Positions 4,954 through 58,935 of a stretch of DNA of 64,000 nucleotides are shown here, one piece after another (position 1 is the first letter of the stretch; every line of letters starts with the position of its first letter). Under the pieces are notes generated by a model. It worked only from the letters and a program-made list of their open reading frames with translations, made no database searches and was not told the DNA's origin. The DNA lies in contig JAUNSR010000016.1 of NCBI GenBank assembly GCA_030539115.1, positions 1,999 through 65,998 on the forward strand. The letters run 5' to 3'. The stretch is from Bacteroidales bacterium. Lineage in GTDB: Bacteria; Bacteroidota; Bacteroidia; Bacteroidales; JAUNSR01. The position numbers and the translations under genes were made by a program.

Positions 4954-6288
4954 TTATAGTTCACGTCTGAAATATGAAAGTACAAAGTCGATGTTCTTTA
5001 ATAAAAGTTCTTTTCCATTTTCTCCCGGAAACTTAATGCCGGGATATTTATTTTCAATTATTGCATTTTTTAAATAGTCTGTATTTATTCCGTCGCAGAA
5101 AAACAGAGTCCATTCAAGTTCTTCTTGATTGTCGTCAGGATTCTCTTCTTTTTGATATTTAAGATAGTTCTGAGATATCTTATCCTGCTGCTCCTCGTTG
5201 AAAGGAAGATCAGGCCTTTCATTAAACAGATTTCTTTCATCCTCAAGAGCTTCAATCTCTTTGACCAATTCTTCTGTGTTTTCGTAACTTCTCAGGTCGC
5301 CGATAAACCACCATTCACTTTGCCATTGCACAAAGCCTGCAAAAAGAATAACCTCTTCAGATTTCATGTCTTTAGGGAATCCAACAAGAGAACGATTGGT
5401 AACATGCAAAATTTCTCCTGTGGCAACATGGCGGAATTGAGCATACATTGAATCCTGTTCCACAAAAACAAAATAACCGGATTTCTTTTTAGAAAGTTCC
5501 ATTAAAGGCTCGTAAAGAGAATTTTCTTCTCCAAGAATTTTTGCCAGCCATTGTGGAGATGTAAGGTTGAAAAACTCAGTAACATTGTTGAAAGAAAAGT
5601 CTGTCATAACCATATTTGCCATTTCAATAACCTTGTCTTCAAGATTGTTTTCTTTTGCAACTTGGGTTACATCATTTAATTCTTCTGTAAGGTCAAGACT
5701 GTCAAAATGGAATAAATATGTTTCAATACACAATTGATAGAATTTTGATTGTATTGTGTATAAATTCTCATCCTCCTCATTTAATTCAAACAGCGCTTTT
5801 AGCTTAGTGTTTTCAGGAGCCTCTTCAAAGGCATTGTCAAAAATAGGAAACACTTTATCTGCTATCTCATCAATAAATGCTTCATTAGGAGAGATTGAGA
5901 TATAACCTTTGTTCAATTGTGTCAGATAATGCCAGCAAAGGAATTTTATATCAATCAGATTAATCTCCTCTTCATAATATTCCTCTGTCTGATAAAACGG
6001 AAGATATGTGCCGTATTTCTCTTTTGAAAGACGAACAAAAGTGTTCCATATATTGGTCTCTGAAATAATATCTTCAAAATATGCTGTTAACAGGCAGCTT
6101 AATGTTTTCTTTTCCTCTTGTGAAAGGAAAAAATCATTTTCATCGTCAAAATTCACCGATGTTTCATCAATTGCATATAAAACTTGGTTGGCAAGCTTTA
6201 TATAATATAAGTCAGTATTGCCCGATTGTTTATATGGATGACATTCCAGCCAGTCGGGGCTGAATATCTTTTGTTCCTGTTTTTTCAT
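4954..6288 (-). CDS. DUF3843-like protein of unknown function
   Basis: N-terminal I...DWL..HPY......D.YY..LAN and AYFEDIISE..IW..F motifs resemble the Bacteroidales DUF3843 family. Confidence 0.7.
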   Translation of the reverse strand: MKKQEQKIFSPDWLECHPYKQSGNTDLYYIKLANQVLYAIDETSVNFDDENDFFLSQEEKKTLSCLLTAYFEDIISETNIWNTFVRLSKEKYGTYLPFYQTEEYYEEEINLIDIKFLCWHYLTQLNKGYISISPNEAFIDEIADKVFPIFDNAFEEAPENTKLKALFELNEEDENLYTIQSKFYQLCIETYLFHFDSLDLTEELNDVTQVAKENNLEDKVIEMANMVMTDFSFNNVTEFFNLTSPQWLAKILGEENSLYEPLMELSKKKSGYFVFVEQDSMYAQFRHVATGEILHVTNRSLVGFPKDMKSEEVILFAGFVQWQSEWWFIGDLRSYENTEELVKEIEALEDERNLFNERPDLPFNEEQQDKISQNYLKYQKEENPDDNQEELEWTLFFCDGINTDYLKNAIIENKYPGIKFPGENGKELLLKNIDFVLSYFRREL

Positions 6289-6320
6289 TTATAAGTAATA
6301 ATTTATTTTTTATGCTAAGA

Positions 6321-6392
6321 TATAAATGCGCCATTTATATATCCTTTGTCAGGTGTTTCATCTTTTGATGAGTTATGGCGATTTCATTTATA
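6321..6392 (-). repeat. Structured leader element, copy 1 (upstream of DUF3843)
   Basis: Minus strand TATAAATG-AAAT-CGCCAT-AAC-TCATC(AAAA)GATGA-A-ACACC..GGATAT-ATAA-ATGGCG-CATTTATA; homologous to 48316-48393 and 58662-58933. Confidence 0.85.
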
Positions 6393-6412
6393 ATATATTT
6401 TTTCTATTGGCG

Positions 6413-6420
6413 CAAATGTA
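6413..6420 (-). promoter_or_regulatory. Bacteroidota -7 promoter element for DUF3843
   Basis: TACATTTG(CGC) matches TAnnTTTG and places the repeat element inside the 5' UTR; -33 element not obvious. Confidence 0.55.
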
Positions 6421-6649
6421 ATATATTATTTTAAATGAGCACTTAATAGAATTATTGCACCTATGTTTTTATTGCAAAAGGCTATGTTGAACAATTAAAT
6501 TAGCTGAATTATTTTTGATATTATTTTATTGAAATATAAAACAAAATGATTGATATTATTAAAAAAATAGATAATCTTGATTGAAAAACTCTGAAAATAT
6601 ATCATATTGATTAAAACATGTTAAATTTCGACTTGTTGTAATAGTATTG

Positions 6650-6681
6650 TTTGGAAGATATAATATGACTGTATATATTTG
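6650..6681 (+). promoter_or_regulatory. Canonical Bacteroidota housekeeping promoter
   Basis: TTTG (6650-6653), 20-nt spacer, TATATTTG (6674-6681). Confidence 0.8.
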
Positions 6682-6684
6682 TTG

Positions 6685-6753
6685 AAGTTTTTCATGGTAT
6701 TAGATTTAAGGTTAACAAAGGTTGGTTGTCGTGAGACAACCAATTTTTATTTT
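6685..6753 (+). ncRNA. Putative trans-acting small RNA (~70 nt)
   Basis: Between a full -33/-7 promoter and a TTGGTTGTC-GTGA-GACAACCAA-T5 terminator (GNRA loop); no plausible ORF; both neighbouring genes on the opposite strand. Confidence 0.75.
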
Positions 6754-7009
6754 ACGGTATTTGTAATTTGAAAATTTATCATTCTTTTGACATCTTCCAC
6801 TCAATAAGGCAATTGTTCTCAAAAGTTATTTATCCTTTCAGGATCATCTTTATTAATATAAAAATTGAATTACTCTCTTTATTCATTGATTATTATAATC
6901 CTAAATATGTTTGATAGTAAAAAAGATATCCCTTTCTAATCTCCATATATAAATAGAGTATTAAAAAGGGAAATCAGTATAAAATATAATATCTGATATG
7001 ATAAAAATC

Positions 7010-9253
7010 TTATTTTAAATCAAAGCTGACTTTAGATTTTATATCAGCTGAAGATGCACCGATTAGTATTTCAAACTTGCCGGGCTCTGCAATCCAATCA
7101 TGCTTTTTGTCATCAAAGAATGAAAGCTCATTTTTAGTTATTTCAAAAACGACCTCTTTGGTTTCATCAGGATTAAGATAAACTTTTTTGAAACCCTTTA
7201 ATTCCTTAACAGGACGAGGCAAAGATGACTTCAAATCACTGATATAAAGCTGCACAACCTCTGCACCTTTAACAGAACCGGAGTTTGTGACAGGAATAGT
7301 GATTTTTATTGTCTCATCTTGAGTGATAGATTTCTTGTCTGCAGAAGCTTTGCCATATTTAAATGTAGTATAACTCAACCCATATCCAAATGGGAAAAGA
7401 GGAGATGTTTTTTCTTTGTCAGCCCAACGATAACCGACAAAAAGTCCTTCATTATACTTTTCATCTATTATATTACTTCCGTCATTTCTTTCAATACCGA
7501 GATATTCTCCAAGTTTATGAGCGCCGACTTCTTCTAATGATGCAGGGAAAGTAAAAGGAAGTTTTCCGGAAGGATTGACATCACCAAATAAAACAGATGC
7601 AATAGCATTACCGGCTTCTGAGCCTAAATACCAAGCCTGAAGAATGGCTTTCGTATCTTTAATCCAAGGCATAGTAACAGCATTTCCGGAGATGTTTACA
7701 ACAACTAAGTTTTTGTTTGCTTTTGCCAAGGCATTGATAACCTCGTTTTGAGTGTATGGAAGCTCGATTCCTTTTCTGTCAGAGTCTTCACAATCCTGAT
7801 TGTTGCTTTTATTTAAGCCACCAATAAAAATCACATAGTCTGCATCTTTTGCCGCATTGACAGCTTCAGAGATTAATTCCTCAGAAGAGCGGTCATCCTT
7901 AAGGTTTTGACCTGATTTGACACCATTGTATTCGCCTGTTGGGTCACCAACGTAGCCTCTTGCAAATACAATTTCGGCATTATTGCCTGCTCTTTTAACT
8001 ATGCCGTCAAGAGGTGAGATTTCATATTTGACTTTTAATGAGGAGCTGCCTCCTCCGACTGTCATCATTTTGATTGCGTTTTCTCCAATTACGGCTATTT
8101 TTTTGTTTGTAGACAAATCAATAGGAAGAGTGTTGTCTTTGTTTTGAAGAAGAACTATACCCTCTTCTCCAATTTGCTTTGCTGCATTAAAATGAGCCTG
8201 TGAACATAAAGATCCATAGGGACGCTTGGAGTTCATAGTGGTTCTAAATGAAAGTCTTAGAATTCGCTTAACTTTTTCGTCCAATTCTTTTGTGCCAGCC
8301 TCTCCTTTTTTAATCATTTGAAGATAAGGGTAAGCAAGGTAATAGTTGTCGTAGGCACTCTTGGTGCCTTTGGATAAACCATTTGTCCAACTGCCAAATT
8401 CCATGTCAAGACCATTTGTTATAGCCTCTTTTGTGTCGTGAACACCGCCCCAGTCAGAAACGACAACGCCGTCAAACCCCCATTCACTTTTAAGAATATT
8501 GTTTAAAATATATTCGTTGTGACAAAGGTGCTGATTTTTGTATAGATTGTAGGCGCCCATTATGCTCCAAGCACCACCTTCTATTACGGCAGCCTTGAAA
8601 GCGGGAAGATAGATTTCATAAAGAGTGCGGTCGTCAATAATAACATTTGTATTATGGCGTTTAACCTCTTGATTGTTTAATGCAAAATGTTTAACACAGG
8701 CAGCCACTCCGTTGCTTTGCACGCCCTTTACATAAGGCACCACCATTTTGCTCGATAAGTATGGGTCTTCTCCCATATATTCAAAGTTTCTTCCATTTAA
8801 GGGTGTTCTATAAATATTTACTCCCGGTCCAAGAAGAATATCCTTTTTGCGATAGCGAGCCTCTTCACCGATACTTTTGCCATAGAGGTAAGAAATTTCA
8901 GGATTCCATGTTGCAGCAAGACAAGTTAGTGCAGGAAAAGCCACACAAGAGTCATTGGTCCAGCCCGCTTGGTCCCATTCATCCCAAAGAACTTCAGGTC
9001 TTATTCCATGAGGACCATCAGTTGTCCAAAACTCAGGAATACCAAGACGGGGAACTCCAGGAGAGCTGAATTTAGATTGGGCATGTGTCATTGCAATCTT
9101 TTCAGAAAGTGTCATTCGTGAGAGAGCATTCTCAATTCTTAGTTCAATGTCTTTTGTTTCATCCAAATAGATTGGAAGATTATCCTTTTGAGCCTGCATT
9201 TGAGTTGATAATGCAAGAATTAAAATAGATAAAAATGTTTTCTGTACGGTCAT
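7010..9253 (-). CDS. GH3 beta-glucosidase with C-terminal Fn3-like domain
   Basis: DGPHGIR, GRNFEYMGEDP, CVKHFALN, VVSDWGG nucleophile motif, PLFPFGYGLSYT, GAEVVQLYI; signal peptide. Confidence 0.92.
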   Translation of the reverse strand: MTVQKTFLSILILALSTQMQAQKDNLPIYLDETKDIELRIENALSRMTLSEKIAMTHAQSKFSSPGVPRLGIPEFWTTDGPHGIRPEVLWDEWDQAGWTNDSCVAFPALTCLAATWNPEISYLYGKSIGEEARYRKKDILLGPGVNIYRTPLNGRNFEYMGEDPYLSSKMVVPYVKGVQSNGVAACVKHFALNNQEVKRHNTNVIIDDRTLYEIYLPAFKAAVIEGGAWSIMGAYNLYKNQHLCHNEYILNNILKSEWGFDGVVVSDWGGVHDTKEAITNGLDMEFGSWTNGLSKGTKSAYDNYYLAYPYLQMIKKGEAGTKELDEKVKRILRLSFRTTMNSKRPYGSLCSQAHFNAAKQIGEEGIVLLQNKDNTLPIDLSTNKKIAVIGENAIKMMTVGGGSSSLKVKYEISPLDGIVKRAGNNAEIVFARGYVGDPTGEYNGVKSGQNLKDDRSSEELISEAVNAAKDADYVIFIGGLNKSNNQDCEDSDRKGIELPYTQNEVINALAKANKNLVVVNISGNAVTMPWIKDTKAILQAWYLGSEAGNAIASVLFGDVNPSGKLPFTFPASLEEVGAHKLGEYLGIERNDGSNIIDEKYNEGLFVGYRWADKEKTSPLFPFGYGLSYTTFKYGKASADKKSITQDETIKITIPVTNSGSVKGAEVVQLYISDLKSSLPRPVKELKGFKKVYLNPDETKEVVFEITKNELSFFDDKKHDWIAEPGKFEILIGASSADIKSKVSFDLK

Positions 9254-9344
9254 AATTTTAAAAGGTTTTATTTTTAGTAACTTATTTACTTTGTTGCAAT
9301 TTATTTGTTTGAGAATTATTCTTTCCTCTTTTATTATATGTGAA

Positions 9345-11246
9345 TTATTCTATAAGACCGTTGGCGGCATCATTATTCTCTTGAAGATAGATTTTATATA
9401 ATGAGAAAAATGTTGGTGCATCCAAAAGTATGATATTAGGATCTTTTGTTTTTAAGCATTCCACAACCTCTTTATACCAAGTAGGAGTTTTTAATATATT
9501 TCTAAACCAATGAAATGGTATGTTTCTTGATGATATCCTTTCTATAATAAGGTCGGCTGCTTTGCATGGATCACTGTCTGTTATGTCATAATCGGAACGC
9601 ATAACAGGCATATCTTTATATAATAGAGTAAGAGGCGATTTTTGAGGAATAATACCGTTTTTGCTGAAACTCCTGTAACATTCCAACCCCTCATTATCCA
9701 ATCCGGGAGCATTGCCATCGATAATAAACCCGGTAATAGAGAGATCCCAACGGTCGTAATATTTTTTGCAATGATTTTTCCACACATCAAGACCCGAGGG
9801 AAGTCCGGAAATAGGGCGGGGATTTTGAAGCATGCCGGGATTTAAATAGCCCGCACCATTGTCTGCCGCAACAAAATAGTCATTCTCTGTTGCTGTTTCC
9901 CTATAATTGTCCATAACCATCGGCATTCTTTCCTCAAGAACCGGGCTTATTGCCCACATCATTGGTATAAGGCCTCTATTTGTATCATCCCAAATTGAAT
10001 GTGTTGTATGAGCTATCCAAGATGAAGAATCATAGTCGCCGACATAAAAAATAATAAGTTTTTTATTTCCAATATTTAGTTTTCCATCTTTTGTCAGATA
10101 ACCCTTTTGTTTTAGCTGTTCTTCAGTTATCCATTTTTGAGGATATTTTTCCTTTAAAGGAAAATGCATCCAAAAAGAGGAATTGGCAAGAGCACCAAGA
10201 CCAATTGCATCGGCATCTTTAAAAGCATTGTAAGCTCCTATGATTTTTGAGAATTCCCATTCTGTTGCCACCGGCTCATGATTGCCACCAATATTATTCC
10301 AATCGGTATATTTAAATGCCCAAGCAGGAAAACCGCCTATATAACACATTTCTTTACCTTTATTATTGTTGTATGCACTAAGAAGAAGGGTTGTAAGAGT
10401 TCTGAAATCTTCTCCTTTTATTTGTCCGGGATCATCAGTGGCTTTTTCATCCTCCCAAGGTGAAAGATCAAAGAAGAATGCTTTTTTGCTCACAAAAAAA
10501 TCGTGATTGGTGAGTGTGTGATGATTTTTGGTAGAGGCATTTGGGTTGTCCATCCATTTTTGGTCAATGTAATAGGCGGCATACTTGGTATTGCACTTTC
10601 CTTTTTTAAGATACATTTCATTAAACCATAAATATGCATCGTTTTTGGCAGAACCGGTAGACTTTTTATTTATATCGGGGATTATTTCAGAGCCGAATTT
10701 GGAGGACCCGTCATTGTTGAGAAGCGAAACCTTGACTTTAAGCTTAATGTTTGAATTTGTAAGCTTATTATATAATGAATTAGGGGCAGCATCATAACGA
10801 ACGGCAATCAAATTTTCAATGCCGGCAATAGATGATGCCAGATTGCTTGTGGCTGCAACGTTTGGGTCGTACACTACAAGCCCGTTGATGTCATTGATGA
10901 AATAATAGATTACATCCTCTATGCTTTTAAGCTCTAAGGTGTCTTTGTTGTAAAGCCATTTGCCGGGTTTCCTATACTTATTCCACCAATATTCGTCAAT
11001 GCAAATATTATTCTCATTTACATATTTAATATACAGGCGCGGTTTTACTCTATTGACAATGCCTTGAAGTGTTGAAACGGCATGAAGCTCATCCCATACC
11101 TGTTTGACTTGATTTTGATCGGAATAATCTTTTTCAAGAAGGTATCTCATGTCGAAAATAACTATTGGCTTTTCCTTTATAGTTTTTGCAAACATGAATG
11201 CAGGAGAAAAAAATATTATTAATGTTAGGAGCAAATGTGATTTCAT
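9345..11246 (-). CDS. GxGYxYP-domain putative glycoside hydrolase
   Basis: TLQGIVNR..PRLY N-terminus, YVGDYDS and GAGYLNP motifs; signal peptide. Confidence 0.7.
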   Translation of the reverse strand: MKSHLLLTLIIFFSPAFMFAKTIKEKPIVIFDMRYLLEKDYSDQNQVKQVWDELHAVSTLQGIVNRVKPRLYIKYVNENNICIDEYWWNKYRKPGKWLYNKDTLELKSIEDVIYYFINDINGLVVYDPNVAATSNLASSIAGIENLIAVRYDAAPNSLYNKLTNSNIKLKVKVSLLNNDGSSKFGSEIIPDINKKSTGSAKNDAYLWFNEMYLKKGKCNTKYAAYYIDQKWMDNPNASTKNHHTLTNHDFFVSKKAFFFDLSPWEDEKATDDPGQIKGEDFRTLTTLLLSAYNNNKGKEMCYIGGFPAWAFKYTDWNNIGGNHEPVATEWEFSKIIGAYNAFKDADAIGLGALANSSFWMHFPLKEKYPQKWITEEQLKQKGYLTKDGKLNIGNKKLIIFYVGDYDSSSWIAHTTHSIWDDTNRGLIPMMWAISPVLEERMPMVMDNYRETATENDYFVAADNGAGYLNPGMLQNPRPISGLPSGLDVWKNHCKKYYDRWDLSITGFIIDGNAPGLDNEGLECYRSFSKNGIIPQKSPLTLLYKDMPVMRSDYDITDSDPCKAADLIIERISSRNIPFHWFRNILKTPTWYKEVVECLKTKDPNIILLDAPTFFSLYKIYLQENNDAANGLIE

Positions 11247-11373
11247 TGGGTATTGTTGGTAAATGATTAACTATTAGATGCCAAATGTAATTATTTCTAT
11301 TTTTTTATTCTATGAACTTTAGAAAATAGATACTTGTTATTTAAAAAAGAAAGGAACTTAAATACTTTTATTT

Positions 11374-12108
11374 ATGAGAATGATGAGAAACTTTGTGTTG
11401 TTGATGCTTTGTCTTAGCTTAATTGTACCACCAGGCTGTCAGTCGTTTCAAAATATGAATAAAACCGGACAAAATGCAGTAGTTGGTGGCGCTGCCGGTG
11501 GGGCAGTCGGCGCAGGTATAGGAGCTTTGCTCGGAGGTGGTAAAGGAACTTGGATTGGTGCTTTGATAGGTTCGGCAATTGGTGCGGGAGCCGGAGCGGC
11601 AATAGGAAATCAGATGGATCGTCAAAAGAATGAACTCGAAAGGGAACTTGCTCAGGTAAAAGAGCTTGCCTCTCAAAAAGATACTACTGTGATTATTAAG
11701 ACAATTAAAGATAGCAATGACCTAAAGGCTATTAAAATTGTTTTAGGTGATGCCATACTTTTTAATACCGGTTCTTCAACTTTATCTCCTTTGGCTGAAT
11801 CCGCTCTTTCCAGAATAGCATATAATTTATCTAAAAACCCAAATACAATAATGACTATTGTAGGTTATACAGATAATACAGGAAGTTATGAAACTAATAT
11901 GCGGCTTTCTCAACAAAGAGCTGATGCTGTGAGAAATTATCTTATCTCTCAGGGAATTTCTTCGTCAAGGCTTCAGGCTATTGGTAAGGGATGGAACGAT
12001 CCTATTGCATCTAATGCAACCCCGGCAGGAAGAGCCCAAAACAGACGTGTGGAAATGTATATTACCGCCGGAGAACAAATGATTAAGGATGCTCAGCAAG
12101 CATATTGA
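11374..12108 (+). CDS. OmpA-family lipoprotein with glycine zipper
   Basis: Lipobox-like PGC, Gly-zipper repeats, VGYTDNTG..N..LSQQRADAV, NRRVE. Confidence 0.9.
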   Translation: MRMMRNFVLLMLCLSLIVPPGCQSFQNMNKTGQNAVVGGAAGGAVGAGIGALLGGGKGTWIGALIGSAIGAGAGAAIGNQMDRQKNELERELAQVKELASQKDTTVIIKTIKDSNDLKAIKIVLGDAILFNTGSSTLSPLAESALSRIAYNLSKNPNTIMTIVGYTDNTGSYETNMRLSQQRADAVRNYLISQGISSSRLQAIGKGWNDPIASNATPAGRAQNRRVEMYITAGEQMIKDAQQAY

Positions 12109-12334
12109 AAAGAAAAAAGTTGAGAGTCCTTGTCGTTTTAGGCTTTTCTTACAATTGAATGTAGAGTCGCTTTTTTACAATTGGAGAGAAAATAGAATGA
12201 ATTGTCAAATTGTAAAAATGTAACTGCATAAAAGCTTTGATTGTCCTGCTGTTATTTATTTAAAATGTAAGATTGTATATAAAGGTTTGAATTGATTTGG
12301 TTTTTAATGATTTGATTGATTTGGTTTAGTTGAT

Positions 12335-13354: not shown

Positions 13355-13472
13355 TATTAATGATTTCTTAAAGAAATAAAATCTAAAGATATTAATAAAG
13401 ACTTTAATTAATTCACAATTAAATAATACCAACATGGATTTCTTTTTTAAATTCGCAAAAAAAAATTACGTT

Positions 13473-18154: not shown

Positions 18155-18166
18155 GAAAATTTCAAA

Positions 18167-47064: not shown

Positions 47065-48282
47065 TTATTTTACGCTTTTAAGGATATGCCCCATTCTTTC
47101 CTTTTTTGTATGCATATAAAATTCATTATATTTATTAGGCTTGATTTCTATAGGCACATTTTCAACAATTTCAAGGCCATAACCCTCAAGACCAATTCTT
47201 TTAACAGGATTGTTGCTCATGAGTCTCATTTTTGTAACTCCAAGGCACTTTAATATGCTTGCTCCAACACCATAGTCTCTTTCATCGGCATCAAATCCAA
47301 GATGAAGATTGGCGTCAACAGTATCCATCCCCTGCTCCTGAAGTTTGTAGGCTTTAATTTTGTTCATAAGACCGATACCGCGTCCCTCTTGATTCATGTA
47401 AACAATAACGCCTTTTCCCTCTTTGTCGATAGTTTCCATAGCTTTGTGAAGCTGCTCACCGCATTCACATCTCATGGAGCCAAAAATATCGCCGGTAGCA
47501 CATGAGCTATGCACCCTTACCAATATAGGTTCATTCTCGTCCCATTGACCTTTAATCAAAGCAACATGTTCAAGTCCGTTTGACTTTTGTCTGAAAGGTA
47601 TAATCTTAAAATCTCCATAGTGAGTTGGAAGATGTACCTCTTCACCTTGCTCGACAATTGACTCCTCTTTAAGACGATATTTGATAAGATCGGCAACTGA
47701 AATGATTTTCATGTTGTTTTCTTTGGCTATCTCGACAAGCTGAGGCAATCTTGCCATAGTGCCATCTTCATTAAGAATTTCAATTAAAACGCCAACAGGA
47801 TTTAAACTTGCAAGACGACAAAGATCAACGGCAGCTTCTGTATGGCCAGCTCTGCGAAGGACGCCTCTATTGCGCGCTCTTAAAGGAAAAATGTGTCCCG
47901 GGCGACCTAAATCCTCAGCCTTAGTAGAGGGGTCGGCAAGATATTTTAGAGTAGTTGCTCTATCATAAGCGGAAATCCCTGTTGTGCAACCATGAGTCAA
48001 AAGATCTACTGAAATAGTAAATGGAGTGGCGTGCAAAGATGTATTTGAATTAACCATAAAAGGAAGTTCAAGGCGGTCAGCAACTTCTTCACTCATGGGA
48101 GCACACATTAAACCTCTTCCGTAGCGAGCCATGAAGTTTGCTTTTTCAGGAGTCATAAGTTGGGCACAACCAATGAAGTCTCCCTCATTTTCTCTATCCT
48201 CATCGTCAACAACAATGATAAGGTTACCTTTTTTGACCTCCTCAATTGCTTCGTCTATAGTATTGAATTGAAAATCTTTCAT
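47065..48282 (-). CDS. ribBA: DHBP synthase / GTP cyclohydrolase II
   Basis: [48 protein letters not shown]; start MKDFQF preferred because the upstream ATG lies inside the repeat. Confidence 0.95.
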
Positions 48283-48315
48283 TTTTATGTAATTTATTTT
48301 TTTAACATTAAGGCG

Positions 48316-48393
48316 TAAATGCGCCATTTATATACCTTTTGTTTAGTAAACCAATATAGATTTGGCTATGGTAGTTAAAACTTTATTCATTTA
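48316..48393 (-). repeat. Structured leader element, diverged copy upstream of ribBA
   Basis: Plus strand TAAATGCGCCATTTATATACCTTTT...GCTATGGTAGTT...TTCATTTA, homologous to the other copies. Confidence 0.75.
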
Positions 48394-50799: not shown

Positions 50800-51156
50800 A
50801 GTATGTGATTTTTCGCAATATAGAAATAAAATTATATATAGGCAATAAACATAAAATAAATGTGAAAATAATATAAAGACATATTATTAAATATCTGTAT
50901 TTCAGTTAAATATAAAACAATGAATTTAGTTACAAATTGAAAGTGTTTTTTCTTTTTTTAGATGATTATTAATTAAATTATTCATTTTCTCAAATAGATT
51001 ATTCTTGTCTATATGCTGATCTTGCCTTAATTATGACATATAATACTTTTTTTTATTAAGTAAGTTATTGATTTTTTATTGTTTATTTTTTTTCTCCTTA
51101 TAATTATTTAAATAAGTTTGTCGCTCTTAATTAATATTAATTCTCAAATTTATCAC

Positions 51157-52341
51157 ATGTCAACTGCACAAACATCATCAGCATCTTTTTTAGATTCCAA
51201 ACCGCATTACAATCTTCTTGACGGATTAAGAGGGGTAGCGGCATTAATGGTAATATGGTATCATGTTTTTGAGGGCTTTGCCACAAGTCCCACTGATCAA
51301 AAATTTAATCATGGTTATTTAGCGGTAGATTTTTTCTTTATTCTATCGGGCTTTGTAATTGGTTATGCTTATGATGACAGGTGGAAATCAATGAAACCAA
51401 AGGATTTTTTTAAAAGACGACTCATTCGTCTGCATCCTATGGTAATATTAGGCGCAATATTTGGTGCAATAACATTTTATATACAGGGAAGCGTGAAATG
51501 GGATGGCTCTTCGGTGGGTATTTCTATGATTATGCTTGCACTTCTTGCAAACCTTTTCCTTATTCCTTCAGCCCCAGGCGGAGCAAGCGAAGTAAGAGGC
51601 AACGGAGAAATGTACCCTTTAAACGGACCAAGTTGGTCTTTGTTTTTTGAATATATAGGAAATATTCTATATGCATTGTTTATCAGACGACTCTCAACAA
51701 AAGCTCTGACAGTATTGGTGATTCTCTCAGGAGCAAGTTTAGCTTCCTTTGCATTATTTAATATGTCAGGATATGGCCATATCGGAGTTGGCTGGACATT
51801 GGCTGACTACAATTTATTGGGTGGTTTTTTAAGAATGATGTTTGCATTTTCTATTGGAATGCTGATGTCGAGAAAATTCAAACCTGTAAAAATTAAGGGA
51901 GCATTCTGGATATGCAGTTTATTTGTAATCGCTCTTTTATCAATGCCTTACATTGGGGATGAAACCACTCCTTGGATGAACGGTATCTATGATTCTGTTT
52001 GTGCTATACTTATTTTCCCTATCTTGGTCTATTTAGGTGCATCAGGAACGACCACCGATATTAAATCTACCAAAATATGTAAATTTCTTGGTGACATCTC
52101 CTATCCTTTATATGTTGTCCATTATCCATTTATGTACCTGTTTTACGCATGGGTATGGGCAGAGGAATTGTCTTTTGTGCAGGCATGGCCGGTAGCTGTA
52201 GGTCTTTTCTTTGGAAACATCCTGTTGGCTTATGTTTGCTTAAAAATTTATGACGAGCCTGTAAGAAAATACCTTACAAAGCGTTGGCTTCAATCGGAAA
52301 ATAAATCAGTTGCTGCCCAAACGGTAGAAAAAACTGTTTAA
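51157..52341 (+). CDS. Acyltransferase family 3 (OafA-like) membrane protein
   Basis: LDGLRGVAA, AVDFFFILSGFV, RRLIRL.P, WSL..E, LGDISYPLY..H.P; TAAGTTTG -7 element at 51113-51120. Confidence 0.88.
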   Translation: MSTAQTSSASFLDSKPHYNLLDGLRGVAALMVIWYHVFEGFATSPTDQKFNHGYLAVDFFFILSGFVIGYAYDDRWKSMKPKDFFKRRLIRLHPMVILGAIFGAITFYIQGSVKWDGSSVGISMIMLALLANLFLIPSAPGGASEVRGNGEMYPLNGPSWSLFFEYIGNILYALFIRRLSTKALTVLVILSGASLASFALFNMSGYGHIGVGWTLADYNLLGGFLRMMFAFSIGMLMSRKFKPVKIKGAFWICSLFVIALLSMPYIGDETTPWMNGIYDSVCAILIFPILVYLGASGTTTDIKSTKICKFLGDISYPLYVVHYPFMYLFYAWVWAEELSFVQAWPVAVGLFFGNILLAYVCLKIYDEPVRKYLTKRWLQSENKSVAAQTVEKTV

Positions 52342-52360
52342 TATCTCTATCCTATAAAAT

Positions 52361-52402
52361 AAAAAAGAGCGTCTTTTGAAATATTCAAAGACGCTCTTTT
52401 TT
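52361..52402. terminator. Bidirectional terminator
   Basis: AAAAAAGAGCGTCTTT / AAAGACGCTCTTTTTT inverted repeat. Confidence 0.8.
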
Positions 52403-52528
52403 ATTATATCTAAATAGATTTTTTAAACATACATAATAGAAAGCATTTTATAATATGAATCCTTTTTAATTAAGAAGCTATCCTTAAAGTTTCAAATACT
52501 TCCATTATTGCTTAAAAAAGTTTTTTTC

Positions 52529-55500
52529 TTAATCAATATATTTTATTGATTCAATAACAACAGGACCAACCAAACCGGAAGGTTCAAGAGGTGTTTCAGC
52601 ATTCCATTGCTGAACGGTCATCCAAATTTTTCTTTGATCCTCAGGCAATCTTAAATCGCCGACGATTCTATTAACCCAAGTGTTTACCACCTCAATTTCA
52701 ACATCATTCTCTCCTGTTTTAACAAAATTGGAAATATCAAGTCTGTAAGGCTCTGTCCAAACTCCACCGGCATATTGACCATTAATCTTAACCTTAGCCA
52801 TCACATACACCTTGTCCATATCAATAAAAATATTGCCTTCAGGTTTTGAGTCAAGATTAAACTTGTTCTTATAGATAATATTTCCTGAATAATATTTCAC
52901 ATCATCAATTTCACTCTTTGATAAATCCTGAGGCTCTGTCATTTTTAAAGATTCCTTTGGCCCGCGCTTGTTTTCATCCAGCTTAACCTCCCAGTCGGTA
53001 ATTGAAGCTATAACTTTAGGCTGAGGATAATTCATGTTTACATCGATTTTTGAAGAAGATGACGATTTTTCATTAAATACAATAAATGCACTCTCAAGAG
53101 ATGCCAATTTCATTGGTACTATTGTTCCGGTTTCTGTCTCTGAGTATGAGGGCAGTTCTCTTATTGAACCCGTTGTTGCATCCCAAAGTTGAGGTTTCAA
53201 GCCTTTTACCCTGAATTCAGGGGCAATTTCAATATCGCCATAACTTTGATTGCTTACAAAATAAATCTCTTTTCCATCAACTGTGCGGTGCCCATAAAGG
53301 ATTGGATCGTTGTCTTTTGTCTTGCAGTCAGGCACACATTTAATAAAATCGAGAGCCTCTTTCATATCCATGCCATTTATTACCATTCCATTGCCAATCT
53401 TTGCAGATTTCACATTTGTGCCATCAATTTCTTTCCAAAGTTGCGCAGCCATCAATTTTACCTGATTGTCTGCCTGAGGATAATTTTGCAAACTTGGAGA
53501 ATACTCAGGAGCAGGTCCAAGAATTACCGCACCTTGCTCAACAAGATATTTAATCTTTTCCAAAAGAGCAGGTCTCATTGTCATCAGTTTAGGCAAAACA
53601 AGTATTTTGTACTGAGTGCCATGAGGCAATGTCAGTAATCCATCCTTTACAGTCATGTTCTTTTCGATAACCTCTGCATTGATATAATCAAACTGGTATC
53701 CTTTAGGAATTTCAGGGTCACGAACACCTGTCATCTTTGGCGCATCCTCGCCAATAAAGTATGCTACATCAGCAACGTTCAAACCTTGCTGAAGCATGAA
53801 ATTCACTCTTTTTAGATAAGAGGTAAAAAGGTCAATTTGTTCAAACCAAGTGTTGTTTCTGTTAAACTCGGTTCCCCAAGGAGCATTTACTCCCGGCAGC
53901 CTTGACTCGTCATAAGGCTGCTCGATATATACATGCAATAAAGTATTATTGATACCTTCAGAGAAGAAGCGGTCTCCGCGCTGTTTCATCATGCCTGGAT
54001 ATCTTTTAAAAGGAGCTCCTCCGCAAGTAAATGATTCGGCAGAGATTTTTGTTTTTCCATAAATGTGACCGCATGAGGATGCTGCACGGTTTTCAATATT
54101 ACCCAATTCTCCTTCGCCCCAATATTCTCCACCAATCTCATCGGATTGACCGCCATATTGAAGAAATTCTCCCGGAAAACCCCAGTGTCCGTAATTTTCA
54201 AGCCATGTTGTCAACCCATATTTATGAGAAACATCTCTTAATCCTCCTACATAGTCATAAGCCACCTTATCTGCGATTAAACGCCTAAGGTCCCACAGAA
54301 AACGGTCAGAGATATCCTCGTTTTTTACAATCTTTCCTGAAAATACAGGAAGGAAAGGTATAGGGTCATAACCATACACCTCTTTAAATTCTTCAAGAAA
54401 TTCGTCAGTGAAATTCTGACCACCGGTTTCATAGCTGTCCTGAACAACCACTTTCCAGCATTTGCGGTCCTGTTCAGGTATTCTTCTGATTATTTCACCC
54501 ATATATGCGTCAAAATGAGATTCGACATGCTTCTTGCTCATCTTGTCAACTTCAAGACCAACAGCTTCTTTACTTGCAGGGCCGTTAGTTACGCCCGTTG
54601 TTCTCATTCCTGTTCTTAAGATTACCCATTTTCCCTGAGGAGCATCCCATTTAAGATTGTCCCCGTCAAGGTTTGCCGTCAGGTCAATGATTGAATCGGG
54701 ATTGATAACGCCTTTTCCATCTGTCGTTTCAAATTGTCTCGGCCACTGGTATTCATTCCAATAAGGAAGCGGGCTTTGAAACATTTTGGCAAGTGTTTTT
54801 TCAGGATATCTTTCCAGTGCAGGAGCATCGGAAAGAACTATTTGGCGAAAGCCGTTCCCCGGATTCTGACCCTTAATTATAAGGCGCACATCTTTTGCCT
54901 GTGTTGGAGCAAAGGAAACAACAACCGGTGCTTTTGCATCAAAACCGACATTTGAGGCTGAGTTATATCTATCTATCTTAAACTCAGAGATTGTTGTGTA
55001 GTTGCCATCCGAATTTTTTACCTGAAGTCGGGCAGGAGAGTTTATAGCCCCATCATTTACATAGAGCTTTATAGAGCGAAGCATTACAGGCTTTTCTGTG
55101 CTGAAGTCAATAGTCCAGTCACTGCCCGGGGTGCCATCAAAATTGGCTGTCGTTTCCAAACTGCCATCGATAAGATTGTTCAAGTCTTTAACGGCAGGGG
55201 TGGATTTAACTCTTGAATTGCTTGTCCGTAGTATTGTTCTCGCACTCTCATTGAAAGCGGGATATGCCAAAACTCTGACATCTTCAAAATACCCCTCAGG
55301 TTTTGAAAGAGTGATATTAACCTCCTTGCCGCCATCAACTTCTGTTGAAGTTGAAGCAAGATATCTCATTGCCTGCTCAGGCTTAATCCAGGGACCTCCC
55401 GACTGACTCCAGCCCGGGGAATTGAAAACGCCGAGTTCTATATCCAAATCGGTGGCTGTTTTCATAGCTGTGTGAAGAATTTTCCACCATTCTTCAGATC

Positions 55501-55777
55501 CGAACTTTACATCTCCATAGGCTACCTCATTATCTCCAAGACCGATGTTTCCAATAAAAGCACGGTTTATGCCCGCTTCTTTCATTGACTTTAAATCTTT
55601 GATAACTCCCTCTTCAGAGATATTATCAGATACCCAATACCAATAAACGGAGGTTTGAATACTTTTTGGTGGATTCTTAAATCCTTTTTCCATTTCACCA
55701 TCCTTAGAGCAGGAAGAAAAAAACGAAAAAGCTGTCAATGCTAATGAAATTGACAATAAGCTTAGATTCTTTTTCAT
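52529..55777 (-). CDS. GH106-like glycosyl hydrolase (alpha-L-rhamnosidase-like), lipoprotein
   Basis: Lipobox FSSC; YWYW..NIS..G..KDL..M, PGWSQSGGPWI, GLEVDK, DSYE, AESFT, VVNTWVNR..GD, PSGL.GPV. Confidence 0.8.
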   Translation of the reverse strand: MKKNLSLLSISLALTAFSFFSSCSKDGEMEKGFKNPPKSIQTSVYWYWVSDNISEEGVIKDLKSMKEAGINRAFIGNIGLGDNEVAYGDVKFGSEEWWKILHTAMKTATDLDIELGVFNSPGWSQSGGPWIKPEQAMRYLASTSTEVDGGKEVNITLSKPEGYFEDVRVLAYPAFNESARTILRTSNSRVKSTPAVKDLNNLIDGSLETTANFDGTPGSDWTIDFSTEKPVMLRSIKLYVNDGAINSPARLQVKNSDGNYTTISEFKIDRYNSASNVGFDAKAPVVVSFAPTQAKDVRLIIKGQNPGNGFRQIVLSDAPALERYPEKTLAKMFQSPLPYWNEYQWPRQFETTDGKGVINPDSIIDLTANLDGDNLKWDAPQGKWVILRTGMRTTGVTNGPASKEAVGLEVDKMSKKHVESHFDAYMGEIIRRIPEQDRKCWKVVVQDSYETGGQNFTDEFLEEFKEVYGYDPIPFLPVFSGKIVKNEDISDRFLWDLRRLIADKVAYDYVGGLRDVSHKYGLTTWLENYGHWGFPGEFLQYGGQSDEIGGEYWGEGELGNIENRAASSCGHIYGKTKISAESFTCGGAPFKRYPGMMKQRGDRFFSEGINNTLLHVYIEQPYDESRLPGVNAPWGTEFNRNNTWFEQIDLFTSYLKRVNFMLQQGLNVADVAYFIGEDAPKMTGVRDPEIPKGYQFDYINAEVIEKNMTVKDGLLTLPHGTQYKILVLPKLMTMRPALLEKIKYLVEQGAVILGPAPEYSPSLQNYPQADNQVKLMAAQLWKEIDGTNVKSAKIGNGMVINGMDMKEALDFIKCVPDCKTKDNDPILYGHRTVDGKEIYFVSNQSYGDIEIAPEFRVKGLKPQLWDATTGSIRELPSYSETETGTIVPMKLASLESAFIVFNEKSSSSSKIDVNMNYPQPKVIASITDWEVKLDENKRGPKESLKMTEPQDLSKSEIDDVKYYSGNIIYKNKFNLDSKPEGNIFIDMDKVYVMAKVKINGQYAGGVWTEPYRLDISNFVKTGENDVEIEVVNTWVNRIVGDLRLPEDQRKIWMTVQQWNAETPLEPSGLVGPVVIESIKYID

Positions 55778-56136
55778 GGTAATAATCTTTCAAACTATAT
55801 ACTATAATAAATTTCTGAATACATTCTTTTTTACATGGTTCTCTCCAAAATATATATACATTTTATACAAAAGTAAAAATATCCGATATCTAAGATGTTT
55901 TAAATATGACCTATCACTTGTTATTTTTGATAATATTTTTTCTTTTTTGATTAATAAATAGATGGTTATGTAAAATATTAAATTATTTGTTGAAACATTT
56001 TATTACTAAAATAATAAATTTGTGAATAAATAAGCGTAAAAGATATTTTCTTAAACATTTTATAGATCTGATTGGTGCTGATGGAATTTTTGAAACAAGA
56101 GATTTATATTTTTTTAAATCCTATAAATAATTACCG

Positions 56137-57594
56137 ATGAAAAAGACATTCCTTTTAATTATGGCGCTCTTTGCAATGAATCTTGCAAATGCCGCTATTA
56201 AGCTTCCAAAAGTTATTGGAGACAATATGGTGCTTCAAAGAAATTCAAATGTAAATCTTTGGGGCGAAGCCTCTCCAAACAAAACAGTAAAAATTAAAAC
56301 ATCCTGGAACGGTAAACAATATTCCGTCAAGTCAGACAATGATGGCAATTGGAAAGTTGCTGTTGTTACCTCTTCAGAAGGGGGCCCCTATACAATAGAA
56401 ATCACTGACGGTGAAAAATTGGAACTTAAAAACATTCTTCTTGGAGAGGTTTGGATCTGCTCAGGACAATCAAATATGGAGATGCCTGTTAAAGGGTTTG
56501 TTAACCAACCTGTTGAGAATGCGGCAAAATATATTACTGAGGCTTCTCAATATCCTCAGATAAGAATGTTTACCGTAGAAAGAAATTCAATTGATGAGGC
56601 TCCTCAAAAAGATTGTAAAGGAGGAGAATGGCTTACCTCAACACCAAAAAGTGTGGCAGACTTTAGCGCGACAGGCTATTTCTTTGGATATACACTAAAT
56701 AAAATGCTGAATATTCCTATTGGGCTTATAACAACCAATTGGGGAGGGTCAACTATTGAAACTTGGATGACAAAAGAGTCGATAAGCTCAATCCCTGGTG
56801 TAAATATGGAGGTTATTTCAAACTATAAGAATGATAATGCAAGAGCACAGGCTTTATATAATGGAATGATCAACCCGATAAAAAATTTTACAGCCAAAGG
56901 TTTTATCTGGTATCAAGGCGAATCAAACAGAGGTAATTATTATGATTATGCGTCTCTAATGAAAAAAATGATCGAGCTTTGGCGCACTGAATGGAATGAC
57001 CAGGAGATGCCTTTTTATATGGTTCAGCTTGCACCTTACAATTATGAGGGAGCTCAATATCGTAGTCTGCCTTTGGTTATTGAAGCTCAATATAAAGCAG
57101 CTTCAGAGCTAAAACACTGTGACGTTGCCGCTACAACAGATATCGGTCATCCTCAGTGCATTCATCCGAGTCGTAAGCTTCAGGTTGGTCAGCGTCTTGC
57201 TTATCTTGCCTTGGCAAATGACTATGGCATTGAAGGGCTTCCTGCAAATTCTCCTACATATAAATCTCTTGAGATTAAAGATAATAAAGTTGTTTTATCA
57301 TTTAACAATGTAAACAATGATAATAGTTTTTGCGGTTTCTCCACAACAGGAGTTAATAGTTTTGAGGGATTTGAGATTGCCGGAGAAGATCAGGTGTTCT
57401 ATCCTGCACAAGCTAATCTTGTATGGTGGCAAAATAAAATGGAGGTAAAAAGCGACAACGTTGCTAAGCCGGTTGCTGTCAGATATGGTTTTGCAAACTT
57501 CAGCACTGCAAATGTGACAACAGCCTTGGGACTTCCATTAGTGCCTTTTAGAACTGACAACTGGGACATTCCACAAAACCAGATATTCAAATAA
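56137..57594 (+). CDS. Sialate O-acetylesterase-family esterase
   Basis: DNMVLQR, GEVWICSGQSNM, WYQGESN, IHP..K..VG.RLA, VAVRY, PFRTD. Confidence 0.88.
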   Translation: MKKTFLLIMALFAMNLANAAIKLPKVIGDNMVLQRNSNVNLWGEASPNKTVKIKTSWNGKQYSVKSDNDGNWKVAVVTSSEGGPYTIEITDGEKLELKNILLGEVWICSGQSNMEMPVKGFVNQPVENAAKYITEASQYPQIRMFTVERNSIDEAPQKDCKGGEWLTSTPKSVADFSATGYFFGYTLNKMLNIPIGLITTNWGGSTIETWMTKESISSIPGVNMEVISNYKNDNARAQALYNGMINPIKNFTAKGFIWYQGESNRGNYYDYASLMKKMIELWRTEWNDQEMPFYMVQLAPYNYEGAQYRSLPLVIEAQYKAASELKHCDVAATTDIGHPQCIHPSRKLQVGQRLAYLALANDYGIEGLPANSPTYKSLEIKDNKVVLSFNNVNNDNSFCGFSTTGVNSFEGFEIAGEDQVFYPAQANLVWWQNKMEVKSDNVAKPVAVRYGFANFSTANVTTALGLPLVPFRTDNWDIPQNQIFK

Positions 57595-57732
57595 TAGGTG
57601 ATTTAAGTCTTTATTTTTATTTGAAAGACTATGTTTTTTGATATTTGAAATTGTTTTATAAAAATAATAAAGAGAGGAAGAATATTATTAATGATATTTC
57701 TTTCTCTCTTTATTATATATAAATAGTCTTTG

Positions 57733-58623
57733 TTACAGAACTTGTGAAACTGCCTCCTCTTTTCTTGTTTTAAGAACAACCAATGCCACTGCAATAAGAA
57801 TTGAACAAATGCCAAATGCATTGCTGAATCCAAAAGGTTCTTTAAAAACCACCACACCAATAGCAACTGCAGTTAATGGCTCCATACATCCAAGAATTGA
57901 AGTAATTGTAGGTCCGATATATTTTACTGCAAGAATTAATGTTAAATCGGAAATAACTGTAGGCAGAAGCGCAAGCAGAAACAAGTTAATGCCGGCAGAG
58001 GTGTCGGGTATCATTTCAATACCTCCGTCTAAAAGTGCATTAATCAAAAAGAATATAGAGCTTGAAAACAGAATGTAAAATGTCAAGGCATATTCGTTGA
58101 GGTGCTTTATATTGCTCTTTTGCAGCCCTACAATATATAGTGCGTAGGTAAATATTGAACTAAGTGCGAAAACTATCCCCATCGGTTCTATCTCTCCAGC
58201 TTTACTCCAGCTTAATACTGAAACTCCAATCAATGATAGGCCTATTGCGGCAATAATTGATGATGAGGTGCTCTCTTTAAAGAAAAATATCATAATTAAA
58301 GCAACCATGAGCGGATAGAGAAAGTGTATTGTTGTGGCTATTCCGCTTGGAATTTTTGTGTATGCTACAAGCAGCAGCAATGCCGTTGCCGCGTAAAAAA
58401 ATCCAAGTATAATGATTGTGAAAATTTCCTTACTGGAAATCTTCTCAAACTTTCCTTTGAAAAAGGTGATCAATCCCATGATAATTGCTGAGAGTATAAA
58501 TCTGTATGACAATACTGAAGATGTGCTCATCCCTGTGTTTAACACCGGTAATGCAAGAAGCGGTATCAAACCGAATGTTGCAGAAGAGGCAATTGCAAAG
58601 AATAATCCTTTTAGTCTTTTCAT
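57733..58623 (-). CDS. EamA/DMT-family transporter
   Basis: About 10 TM segments, ATTIHFLYP, SILGCMEPLTA. Confidence 0.88.
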   Translation of the reverse strand: MKRLKGLFFAIASSATFGLIPLLALPVLNTGMSTSSVLSYRFILSAIIMGLITFFKGKFEKISSKEIFTIIILGFFYAATALLLLVAYTKIPSGIATTIHFLYPLMVALIMIFFFKESTSSSIIAAIGLSLIGVSVLSWSKAGEIEPMGIVFALSSIFTYALYIVGLQKSNIKHLNEYALTFYILFSSSIFFLINALLDGGIEMIPDTSAGINLFLLALLPTVISDLTLILAVKYIGPTITSILGCMEPLTAVAIGVVVFKEPFGFSNAFGICSILIAVALVVLKTRKEEAVSQVL

Positions 58624-58633
58624 TTATTTATTT

Positions 58634-58935
58634 CTTTTATCTAATATTTTTTACATTAATGTACAAATGCGCCATTTATATACCTTTTGGTGGGTATCTC
58701 ATCTATAGGCAAGTTATGGCGGTTTCATTTGTGAATATCTTTTATCTAATATTTTTTACATTAATGTACAAATGCGCCACTTATATACCTTTTTATTGGT
58801 ATCTCATCTATAGGCAAGTTATGGCGGTTTCATTTGTATAAAATTCTATTTTTTAATTTTAGTACAAATGCGCCATTTTTCAGTCTCTTGTGTTGCGTAT
58901 CAACTTTTGGTGGCTGTGGCGATTTTATTTATTAG
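58634..58935 (-). repeat. Three tandem copies of the structured leader element (cores 58662-58733, 58767-58838, 58863-58933)
   Basis: GTACAAATGCGCCA recurs at 58661, 58766 and 58862 (periods 105 and 96 bp); the first two units are near-identical. Confidence 0.9.

Follow-up and report, generated by a model that had tools for sequence, protein, structure and literature searches.

A start-codon-associated repeat in a Bacteroidales genome and its probable kinship with IS110/IS1111-like insertion sequences

Why should the same structured stretch of about 72 nucleotides (nt) stand, always in the sense of the downstream gene and at nearly the same distance, before three unrelated genes? The question is raised by 64,000 nt of contig JAUNSR010000016.1 of a Bacteroidales bacterium (assembly GCA_030539115.1), hereafter called the window, in which five copies of such a core precede a DUF3843 gene, ribBA and an EamA transporter gene. 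The analysis covered the window, its genome (labelled G000; 3.37 Mb in 89 contigs, 34% G+C, 90% complete), the nine genomes of the genus (G000 to G008, with L-numbers for loci) and a wider set of genomes and metagenomes. The answer that we favour, with a probability of roughly 0.7, is that the repeat is a non-autonomous miniature of an IS110/IS1111-like clade of insertion sequences (IS) and inserts at start codons.

The five cores (6321-6392, 48316-48393, 58662-58733, 58767-58838 and 58863-58933) all lie on the minus strand, as do the three genes, and can be aligned into the A-rich leader that follows them, as a preliminary description of this DNA had reported. Their nhmmer E-values of 1e-18 to 9e-26 are far past chance. 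The distances given there between the ATGGCG core and the gene starts, 46 nt for DUF3843, 45 nt for ribBA and 52 nt for EamA, were recovered when recomputed from the positions of CGCCAT read from the window (6329-6334, 48322-48327 and 58670-58675) and of the start codons (CAT on the plus strand, 6286-6288, 48280-48282 and 58621-58623). Pfam bears out the gene identities (DUF3843; DHBP synthase plus GTP cyclohydrolase II for ribBA; EamA) and places LptF upstream of ribBA. The consensus also adopts the proposed fold, with an outer stem, a 4-nt bulge, a CGCCAT/ATGGCG stem and two hairpins (-19.6 kcal/mol), the left half of the ribBA copy being degenerate. The complete units and their associated features in the window are as follows.

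6289..6387, minus strand: repeat unit before DUF3843, composed of the left ATGAAA (6382-6387), hairpin core and A-rich tail; 106.4 bits over 6286-6396 with the covariance model
6283..6288, minus strand: right ATGAAA, which is the start codon and Lys codon of DUF3843 (gene 4954-6288)
6414..6421, minus strand: TACATTTG, a TAnnTTTG match read from the sequence, 26 nt before the left ATGAAA
48283..48393, minus strand: repeat unit before ribBA, right half and tail intact, left arm degenerate; 87.5 bits over 48280-48389
48277..48282, minus strand: ATGAAA start of ribBA (gene 47065-48282)
58624..58728, minus strand: unit 1 of a three-unit tandem array, nearest the EamA gene (57733-58623); 111.6 bits
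58729..58833, minus strand: unit 2 of the array, near-identical to unit 1; covariance model 104.2 bits
58834..58928, minus strand: unit 3 of the array, more diverged, left hexamer ATAAAA; nhmmer 68.8 bits, E = 1e-18
58618..58623, minus strand: ATGAAA start of the EamA gene

Unit 3 of the array missed the 1e-6 cut-off with covariance model R1. The box listed at 6414-6421 agrees with the -7 promoter proposed for DUF3843, TAnnTTTG being the Bacteroidetes -7 motif, and because it stands 26 nt upstream of the left ATGAAA the DUF3843 unit probably sits, to judge from this motif, inside the 5' untranslated region (UTR).

A profile built from the five copies gave 245 nhmmer matches in the genome, and after one iteration 225 copies were retained at E <= 0.01 (plus strand 107, minus strand 118), distributed over 178 loci (141 solo, 28 double, 8 triple and 1 quadruple). 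Genes were delimited crudely, as ATG-first open reading frames (ORFs) of at least 100 amino acids, greedily resolved into a set of 2326; by this measure 14 of the 225 copies overlap a gene by more than 20 nt and 211 do not. The downstream gene is co-oriented with 185 copies and opposed to 28, the remaining 12 being next to a contig edge. Sorted by spacer, 127 copies lie in sense and 16 in antisense between genes of the same strand, 58 between divergent genes and 12 between convergent ones. For 80 of the 185 co-oriented copies the end of the model falls 10-19 nt ahead of the predicted ATG, and further distance peaks near +105 and +210 nt correspond to the outer units of tandem arrays.

The homology does not end at the leader, but extends through the start codon (...GCGCATTTGTACCTTAG(TG or AGGTAACGG)TTAAAAATTAAATTATATACAA|ATGAAA). 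A unit measures about 105 nt, starts with ATGAAA(T/C)CGCCAT (in full, the left end reads ATGAAA(T/C)CGCCATAA) and ends with ...TATACAA|ATGAAA; ATGAAA brackets each unit and is held in common by neighbouring units of an array. The left ATGAAA heads a 4-codon ORF, MK(S/P)P-stop (ATG AAA (T/C)CG CCA TAA), which ends about 95 nt upstream of the ATG of the gene. The termini (left TCGCCATAAC.., right ..TTATATACAA) are unrelated to each other and form no inverted repeat. The palindrome is internal and asymmetric, with a left arm that runs from the left ATG and has CGCCAT 7 nt in, and a right arm about 35-45 nt from the right end.

An ORF of 60 or more amino acids begins with the terminal ATG at 116 of the 178 loci, and 87 of these ORFs start ATGAAA. 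Among the 62 unfused loci, 55 tails were inspected and most keep ...ACAAATGAAA, while the orientation of these 55 loci is near-random (32 co-oriented versus 21 opposed). Truncated copies lack the 5' part in 21 cases and the 3' part in 5, and partial copies are mostly right halves, an excess that a need to retain the gene-proximal part would produce. Neighbouring units within an array share 94.8% identity (n = 23), compared to 77% for other pairs, which argues that arrays grow by local duplication. At another site outside the window (G000:C42:2768-7012), three segments of 450-870 bp that are mutually 94-99% identical alternate with copies of the repeat, perhaps the product of a local duplication in which the repeat was the mediator.

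The hexamer shared by the two ends is itself the commonest gene start (Met-Lys) in the genome, where it opens 504 of 2324 predicted genes. The repeat is found at 85 of 503 ATGAAA gene starts and at about 55 of 1164 other, non-genic ATGAAA sites, both sets being counted outside repeat bodies (odds ratio 4.1, p = 6e-15). The second codon is AAA rather than AAG in a ratio of 87:4 in fused genes, compared to 504:141 in all genes (p = 2e-6). In solo or first copies the left flank carries A at -4, -2 and -1 in 67%, 70% and 67% of cases, versus 37%, 35% and 27% at unoccupied ATGAAA starts. About one third of these "first" copies have a tail remnant upstream; in the 58 copies without tail-like upstream sequence the enrichment at -2 and -1 persists (69% and 66%).

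Within the genus the repeat is patchy. By blastn it is present in five of the nine genomes (G000, G002, G005, G006 and G008) and was found neither in G001, G003, G004 and G007 nor among 32 genomes from other families. When the three-way junction was built into a covariance model, 2 of 151 genomes of the order were matched, both of the same genus, and an exact two-part pattern searched in species-representative genomes gave at least 70 stretches, among the matches listed all in four records named "MAG: Bacteroidales bacterium" (MAG, metagenome-assembled genome). Orthologues were compared for ten fused genes of G000 and for 28 genes fused in relatives, which are only about 73% identical in coding DNA. 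The empty sites that the preliminary description had suggested looking for at ribBA do exist: the site is filled in G000 and G005 and empty in G001, G003, G007 and G008. A gene starting MKKKAL is filled in G000 and G005 and empty in G008; an rfbA-like gene (N-terminus MKGIIL) is filled in G000 and G008 and empty in G005; and the remaining seven of the ten are empty in every relative examined. Conversely, 23 of the 28 genes fused in relatives are empty in G000 and five were flagged as filled by a regular expression, one of which (L103) is by eye not a repeat copy.

A subfamily with an extra insert in the tail (AGGTAACGGTTA) accounts for 45 of the 178 loci of G000, 28 of them gene-fused, and for none of the 85 loci of relatives; compared in pairs, its members have a median identity of 92%. 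The insert is near-palindromic (AGGTAACGGTTAG) and lengthens the tail by 8-9 nt, for example at C27:119090-119420, outside the window. Two public read runs (shares 0.16 and 0.09; contigs) gave high depth over the repeat and no informative joint across a unit. At the ribBA locus of G005 (L010:1380-1560) a repeat unit that is 5'-truncated overlaps the lptF-like gene upstream at its stop codon, and the end of that gene may for this reason be element-derived.

[quoted passage not shown] That the repeat is mobile and targets start codons we regard as highly probable. The target-site duplication also looked for at its suggestion did not materialise, since the flanking hexamers mostly do not co-vary.

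A different answer, the first of the possibilities named in the preliminary description, is a cis-regulatory leader RNA (riboswitch, attenuator or thermosensor) that would control about 100 genes together. In its most explicit form, two partners would compete for the right arm CAUUUGUA, namely the left end and UACAAAUG, which holds the start codon, and the 4-codon ORF ending in Pro-stop would serve as sensor. The sense orientation, the fixed place before start codons and the -7-like box upstream of the DUF3843 unit agree with this explanation, and the mutually exclusive pairings are present in the sequence. The compensatory change listed in that description (TATAAATG/CATTTATA versus TACAAATG/CATTTGTA) is real, but it is confined to a difference between subfamilies. 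In 142 copies, the base after CATTT and the base before AAATG in the tail read G/C 102 times, A/T 32 times, G/T five times, A/C twice and G/A once; the complementarity of right arm and tail is kept in 134 of them, as a leader RNA would have it, and the change from G/C to A/T in the outer stem is a subfamily-level one. An alignment of 106 copies (104 distinct) from five genomes also favours structure, with 92.2% of cells pairing, 13 pairs changed on both sides and none of 500 shuffles matching these figures, in an alignment that was fitted to the model and whose rows are related; the changes on both sides lie almost only in the outer stem and again track the subfamilies. Within G000, stem positions vary almost only on one side, the inner stems are nearly without changes on both sides, and departures to G-U and to C-A are about equally frequent (e.g., 7 to 5, 3 to 5, 5 to 8 and 8 to 8), which argues against an RNA under strand-specific selection. 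RNAalifold returned no structure for 128 copies, and the consensus fold was taken instead.

The predicted behaviour of the initiation region points the same way. Between -18 and +9 the predicted unpaired probability is 0.625 for 80 fused genes and 0.503 for 150 native ones (p = 9e-10), a region more open than the native one. The AUG is no more paired in the predicted ensemble than in native genes (0.42 versus 0.40); the right arm has two alternative partners, the left end and the start-codon region, and its pairing with the AUG is predicted to be a minor conformer. From these predictions we infer that the repeat may be tolerated because it supplies an open initiation region. A promoter of its own was sought as TAnnTTTG and found inside only 6 of the 225 units; at the native distance upstream the motif occurs at 8 of 81 fused loci, compared to 15% of native starts, which is not distinctive.

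In agreement with the earlier statement that no known riboswitch is matched, Rfam at gathering thresholds returned only a FopS-family small RNA (sRNA) and a tRNA in the whole window, and a permissive search over the EamA array gave rox2 as its best match (E = 0.27, 21.9 bits versus a gathering threshold of 55). The FopS-family sRNA (RF04319, 6685-6753, plus strand, 72.7 bits versus a gathering threshold of 56) lies in the divergent spacer, about 300 nt past the DUF3843 repeat copy. The tRNA (59004-59077, minus strand) and then a terminator-like hairpin (about 58966-58995) lie directly upstream of the three-unit EamA array, and from this hairpin to the EamA gene no TAnnTTTG box is visible in the sequence.

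Taken together with downstream genes that are functionally unrelated, orthologues that mostly lack the repeat and 62 of 178 loci that precede no ORF of at least 60 amino acids, these results make a dedicated cis-regulatory RNA unlikely; secondary exaptation of the repeat may have occurred at some genes.

What, then, would move the repeat? The sole PF01548 match in the genus belongs to G005 (DEDD_Tnp_IS110, 90.3 bits, with Transposase_20, PF02371, at 53.4 bits). Directly before this IS110 element stands a copy of the repeat (69 bits), and the IS as a whole lies within a tandem array of the repeat. The left end of the IS (ATGAAATCTCCATAAC...) follows the ...TATACAA|ATGAAA of that copy and aligns with about 50 nt of the repeat, after which comes the transposase gene. 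Its right end (..TTATATATAA) matches the last 10-19 nt of the repeat and abuts the ATGAAA of the next ORF; about 258 nt past the second transposase ORF the sequence reads ...GTTATATATAA|ATGAAAACC, the latter being the start of that ORF. Rfam gave no match over the G005 IS.

Relatives of this IS were sought by scanning metagenomes with the transposase, which confirmed 589 of 598 stretches, and the best 80 (46-65% amino acid identity by tblastn) were kept. A table of 81 loci was scripted, with boundaries set by regular expressions; one mis-called row (L159) was dropped for the comparison of motif-flanking bases. The left end ATGAAA(T/C)..CCAT is present in 66 of the 81 loci, 47-125 nt ahead of the ATG of the transposase, and the left end of the G005 IS is 80% identical to that of L122 over 69 nt. 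Right ends read TTAT(A/T)(A/T)AC-nn adjoining ATGAAA, and an ORF of 60 amino acids or more begins at the right end in 28 of 51 loci, many loci stopping at a contig edge. The non-coding region 3' of the transposase gene is conserved in DNA across many loci, for example at 79% over 142 nt, and contains two motifs, nnATGAAA[T/C]TGA (motif 1, 59 of 81 loci) and nnATGAAA[A/T]TTT (motif 2, 57 of 81). An alignment of twelve of these RNA regions folds into 21 predicted pairs; in ten of them pairing survives changes on both sides, and both ATGAAA motifs lie outside the predicted helices.

The bases next to the two motifs follow the ends of the element and its target. In 41 of 51 loci the dinucleotide preceding motif 2 is identical to the final dinucleotide of the IS (mean 7.7 and maximum 17 in 5000 shuffles). 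The dinucleotide preceding motif 1 is identical to that of the left flank in 32 of 48 loci, and its -1 base taken alone in 46 of 48 (up to 16 after shuffling, with a mean of 6.2); agreement in the crossed controls is 13 of 51 and 13 of 46. The seventh base of motif 1 is the seventh base of the left end in all 48 loci. In G005 the corresponding guides are ..AA|ATGAAAT and ..AA|ATGAAAA, which fit both the preference for A at -2 and -1 in the left flank of the repeat and the ..CAA of its right end, and the seventh base T of motif 1 agrees with the ATGAAAT of the repeat, found in 71% of copies.

Could the IS110 element be a mere guest, aimed at the repeat or at ATGAAA as a safe harbour, with the repeat moved by something else? 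The G005 IS does lie within a tandem array of the repeat, and there is precedent in ISPpu9, which is reported to be inserted into REP sequences (PMC12288879). The repeat profile (nhmmer) found no match in the 80 metagenomic loci, and copies of the IS in organisms without the repeat still begin ATGAAA(T/C)..CCAT and end ..TATAC... The shared ends therefore belong to the IS clade and not to an interrupted repeat, and we consider a guest role highly improbable. By eye, L122 and L125 have the layout of the G005 IS. In L125 (L125:2190-2390) two tandem units of about 95 nt starting ATGAAATCGCCAT stand directly before the left end of the IS (ATGAAATATCCATGA), and its right end ...AACACAT abuts ATGAAAAAAATA..., an ORF beginning MKKIIYTENA. 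The tandem unit of L125, which is from another organism, has a GGCGAT inverted repeat of its own. Together with the two or more left-end motifs seen in 14 of 65 loci, the L125 units suggest that hairpin miniatures arise repeatedly in the IS clade.

Other small mobile elements were also considered. The Correia elements of Neisseria and the MITEs of P. gingivalis are small, non-coding, intergenic and present in high copy number, are often co-transcribed and have hairpin potential. The repeat is likewise small, non-coding, high-copy, intergenic and hairpin-forming, but unlike a classical MITE of a DDE transposase it has neither terminal inverted repeats nor a variable target-site duplication, and shows a fixed target of 6-8 nt and one orientation. 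Another candidate would be a REP/REPIN sequence or a palindrome-associated transposable element (PATE) derived from IS200/IS605, moved in single-stranded form by a Y1 (HUH) transposase and inserted 3' of TTTCAT on the bottom strand. The bulged hairpin of the repeat near one end, its strict and strand-specific orientation, short specific target and absence of target-site duplication are those of such elements, and the 21-to-5 excess of 5'-truncated copies would suit them too. However, a Y1 transposase (Y1_Tnp, PF01797) was found in none of the nine genus genomes, one of which is 99% complete in 20 contigs, while the control search found it in 6 of 14 reference genomes; TnpB (PF07282) was likewise found in none of the nine. 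Among the same genomes RVT_1 gave one weak match, in G005 only. Replication-strand counts, in which local GC skew is confounded with gene strand, give little sign of a bias beyond that of genes (26 of 44 unfused and 58 of 85 fused copies versus 64% of genes), and both ends and the target are already accounted for by the IS110 clade. The REP-like part of the earlier wording, read as the mechanism of REP sequences and their associated tyrosine transposases (RAYT), is thereby disfavoured, and a PATE appears extremely unlikely.

Spread might also require no enzyme at all, proceeding by microhomology-driven template switching or recombination between ATGAAA sites, with fork stalling at the hairpin and arrays formed by slippage. 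The short direct repeats at both ends, from which similarity decays outward, the growth of arrays by local duplication and the lack of a transposase in the G000 assembly are what such a process would leave. It leaves unexplained why the repeat keeps strictly to one orientation and prefers true gene starts 4-fold, why 45 loci arose in a lineage-specific burst, and why autonomous elements of IS110 type in many organisms have identical ends and target; we hold it to be quite improbable.

We consider it probable, on the strength of these comparisons, that an IS110-type recombinase and its RNA move the repeat. In the proposed mechanism, a DEDD recombinase and a guide RNA of seek or bridge type, encoded after the transposase gene, would mobilise the mini-element in trans. 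The guide RNA would expose two single-stranded ATGAAA segments, whose adjacent bases would spell the left flank of the target and the ends of the element. Insertion would occur in one orientation directly 5' of ATGAAA, preferably at AA|ATGAAA, the target of the mini-element reading AAATGAAA. The A/T-rich tail ...TATACAA would then become a new, unstructured translation-initiation region of the target gene, while the old ribosome-landing site would be left heading an orphan ORF of four codons (MK[S/P]P-stop), and units would subsequently multiply locally into tandem arrays. The more general picture, in which a whole IS110/IS1111-like clade has a guide core fixed on ATGAAA plus two programmable bases, uses the start codon as a genome-wide safe harbour and, in one Bacteroidales genus, has miniatures that fill about one sixth of ATGAAA-start genes in lineage bursts, replacing their leaders, seems to us slightly favoured.

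Several observations weigh against the derivation of the repeat from such a clade. Searches of G000 (90% complete, 89 contigs) found no IS110 transposase or guide-RNA region; blastn and tblastn with the G005 IS gave nothing significant there, and a self-megablast of the genome revealed no multi-copy family of at least 300 bp (22 rows including reciprocal matches). An IS110-family transposase was not found in the carriers G002, G006 and G008 either (72-92% complete). In G005 itself the transposase is split into two ORFs at a poly-A run, which could reflect an assembly error, decay or programmed slippage; the run of nine A's (L120:3140-3190) interrupts the gene, and the rest of Transposase_20 lies in another frame. 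Neither the right arm of the repeat (ATGGCGCATTT..) nor the first half of its tail is represented in the G005 IS, so that a simple internal deletion of that IS would not yield the repeat. Taken alone, the G005 arrangement would equally fit an IS that had inserted into a copy of the repeat. The dinucleotides disagree in 7 to 10 of about 50 rows of the covariation table, the rows of which are phylogenetically related and have boundaries parsed by regular expressions. Moreover, true gene starts are occupied 3.6 times as often as other ATGAAA sites, more than the 8-nt target alone would account for, the flanking hexamers rarely co-vary, which speaks against a classical target-site duplication, and empty orthologues do not in every case start with ATGAAA.

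The last two points bear on whether ATGAAA is target or cargo. Lys is the second codon in 16 of 34 empty orthologues and in 12 of about 17 usable pairs (7 AAA, 5 AAG), against a background of about 28%. Other second codons are mostly one change away from AAA (ACA, ATA, AGA, GAA, AAT, AAC and CAA), and the empty ribBA genes of four relatives start ATG TCA or ATG AGC. As the empty sites are not always ATGAAA, either the target arose in the lineage before insertion or the insertion may replace codon 2 at some sites; one filled gene retains the ATGAAT of its empty orthologue. Where the right hexamer deviates (AAG, AAT, AAC or AGA), the left one is mostly still ATGAAA. Co-variation of the two hexamers was clear in one case (L106), an ATGCAA pair being taken as derived from tandem units. 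Protein length is the same as in the empty orthologue in most pairs, the exceptions being one with two additional codons and one with a variable N-terminus. Two further possibilities, an insertion that adds a Lys and one that lands upstream of an intact native ATG, were ruled out by these mostly unchanged protein lengths. Since the right hexamer varies alone and protein length is unchanged, the left hexamer appears to travel with the element and the right one to be mostly the gene's own.

How does the mini-element compare with known systems? Bridge RNAs have a finer guide scheme, with left and right target guides (LTG/RTG). A core dinucleotide and handshake guides are described for them in a review. 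According to PMC11187229, IS1111-type elements have a non-coding region after the transposase gene (tnp), their seekRNA contains short segments complementary to the two target strands, and a mini-IS reduced to 84 and 71 bp of ends is mobile once transposase and seekRNA are provided in trans. The clade relatives share with IS110/IS1111 elements the DEDD transposase with Transposase_20, the lack of terminal inverted repeats, sequence- and orientation-specific insertion, the same short sequence on either side of the element and non-coding segments after tnp that match target and ends; subterminal inverted repeats were sought by eye only, and none was evident. Homology of the ends holds for the repeat as well, while the guide-RNA region is found in the IS clade and is lacking in the repeat itself; mobilisation in trans, for which the published mini-IS is the precedent, may by analogy hold for the repeat. 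The differences are that the guide core here is constantly ATGAAA, which would explain why insertions fall on start codons and are co-oriented with genes, and that the repeat is a natural derivative of about 105 nt, in about 225 copies, and has a hairpin absent from the G005 IS.

Mycobacterial interspersed repetitive units (MIRUs) form tandem arrays. As presented in PMC12548453, they are apparently mobile, do little harm to the genes at whose start codons they insert, and carry an ORF that is coupled to the gene. On that account the repeat resembles MIRUs in being dispersed, located at start codons and arranged in tandem, and differs from them in phylum, in sequence and in its palindromic core. 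The internal ORF of MIRUs is coupled at -4 nt, whereas the repeat has no ORF overlapping neighbouring stop and start codons, but rather a 4-codon ORF about 95 nt upstream followed by a fresh A-rich initiation region. We found no published description of the repeat or of a start-codon-aimed IS110 clade in the literature searched, supplements (e.g., the target logos of PMC11187229) aside. As far as that literature goes, start-codon targeting with replacement of the leader is new here, the IS110/IS1111-type system itself being known.

For these genomes, the finding would show how a compact genome can bear a very high density of mobile elements without its genes being killed, the insertion rebuilding what it interrupts by keeping the start codon and supplying an open leader. 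It is also a warning for annotation: about 100 leader structures in these genomes would be insertions and not riboswitches, and the starts, second codons and 5' UTRs of housekeeping genes (e.g., ribBA) can be element-derived. For the recombinases guided by bridge RNA or seekRNA, it would add a large and apparently undescribed class of targets, together with a natural series of guide variants in which two variable bases stand beside a constant ATGAAA. If true, it would represent a natural RNA-guided rewriting of 5' UTRs at genome scale, and would offer a ready-made pair of recombinase and RNA aimed at gene starts.

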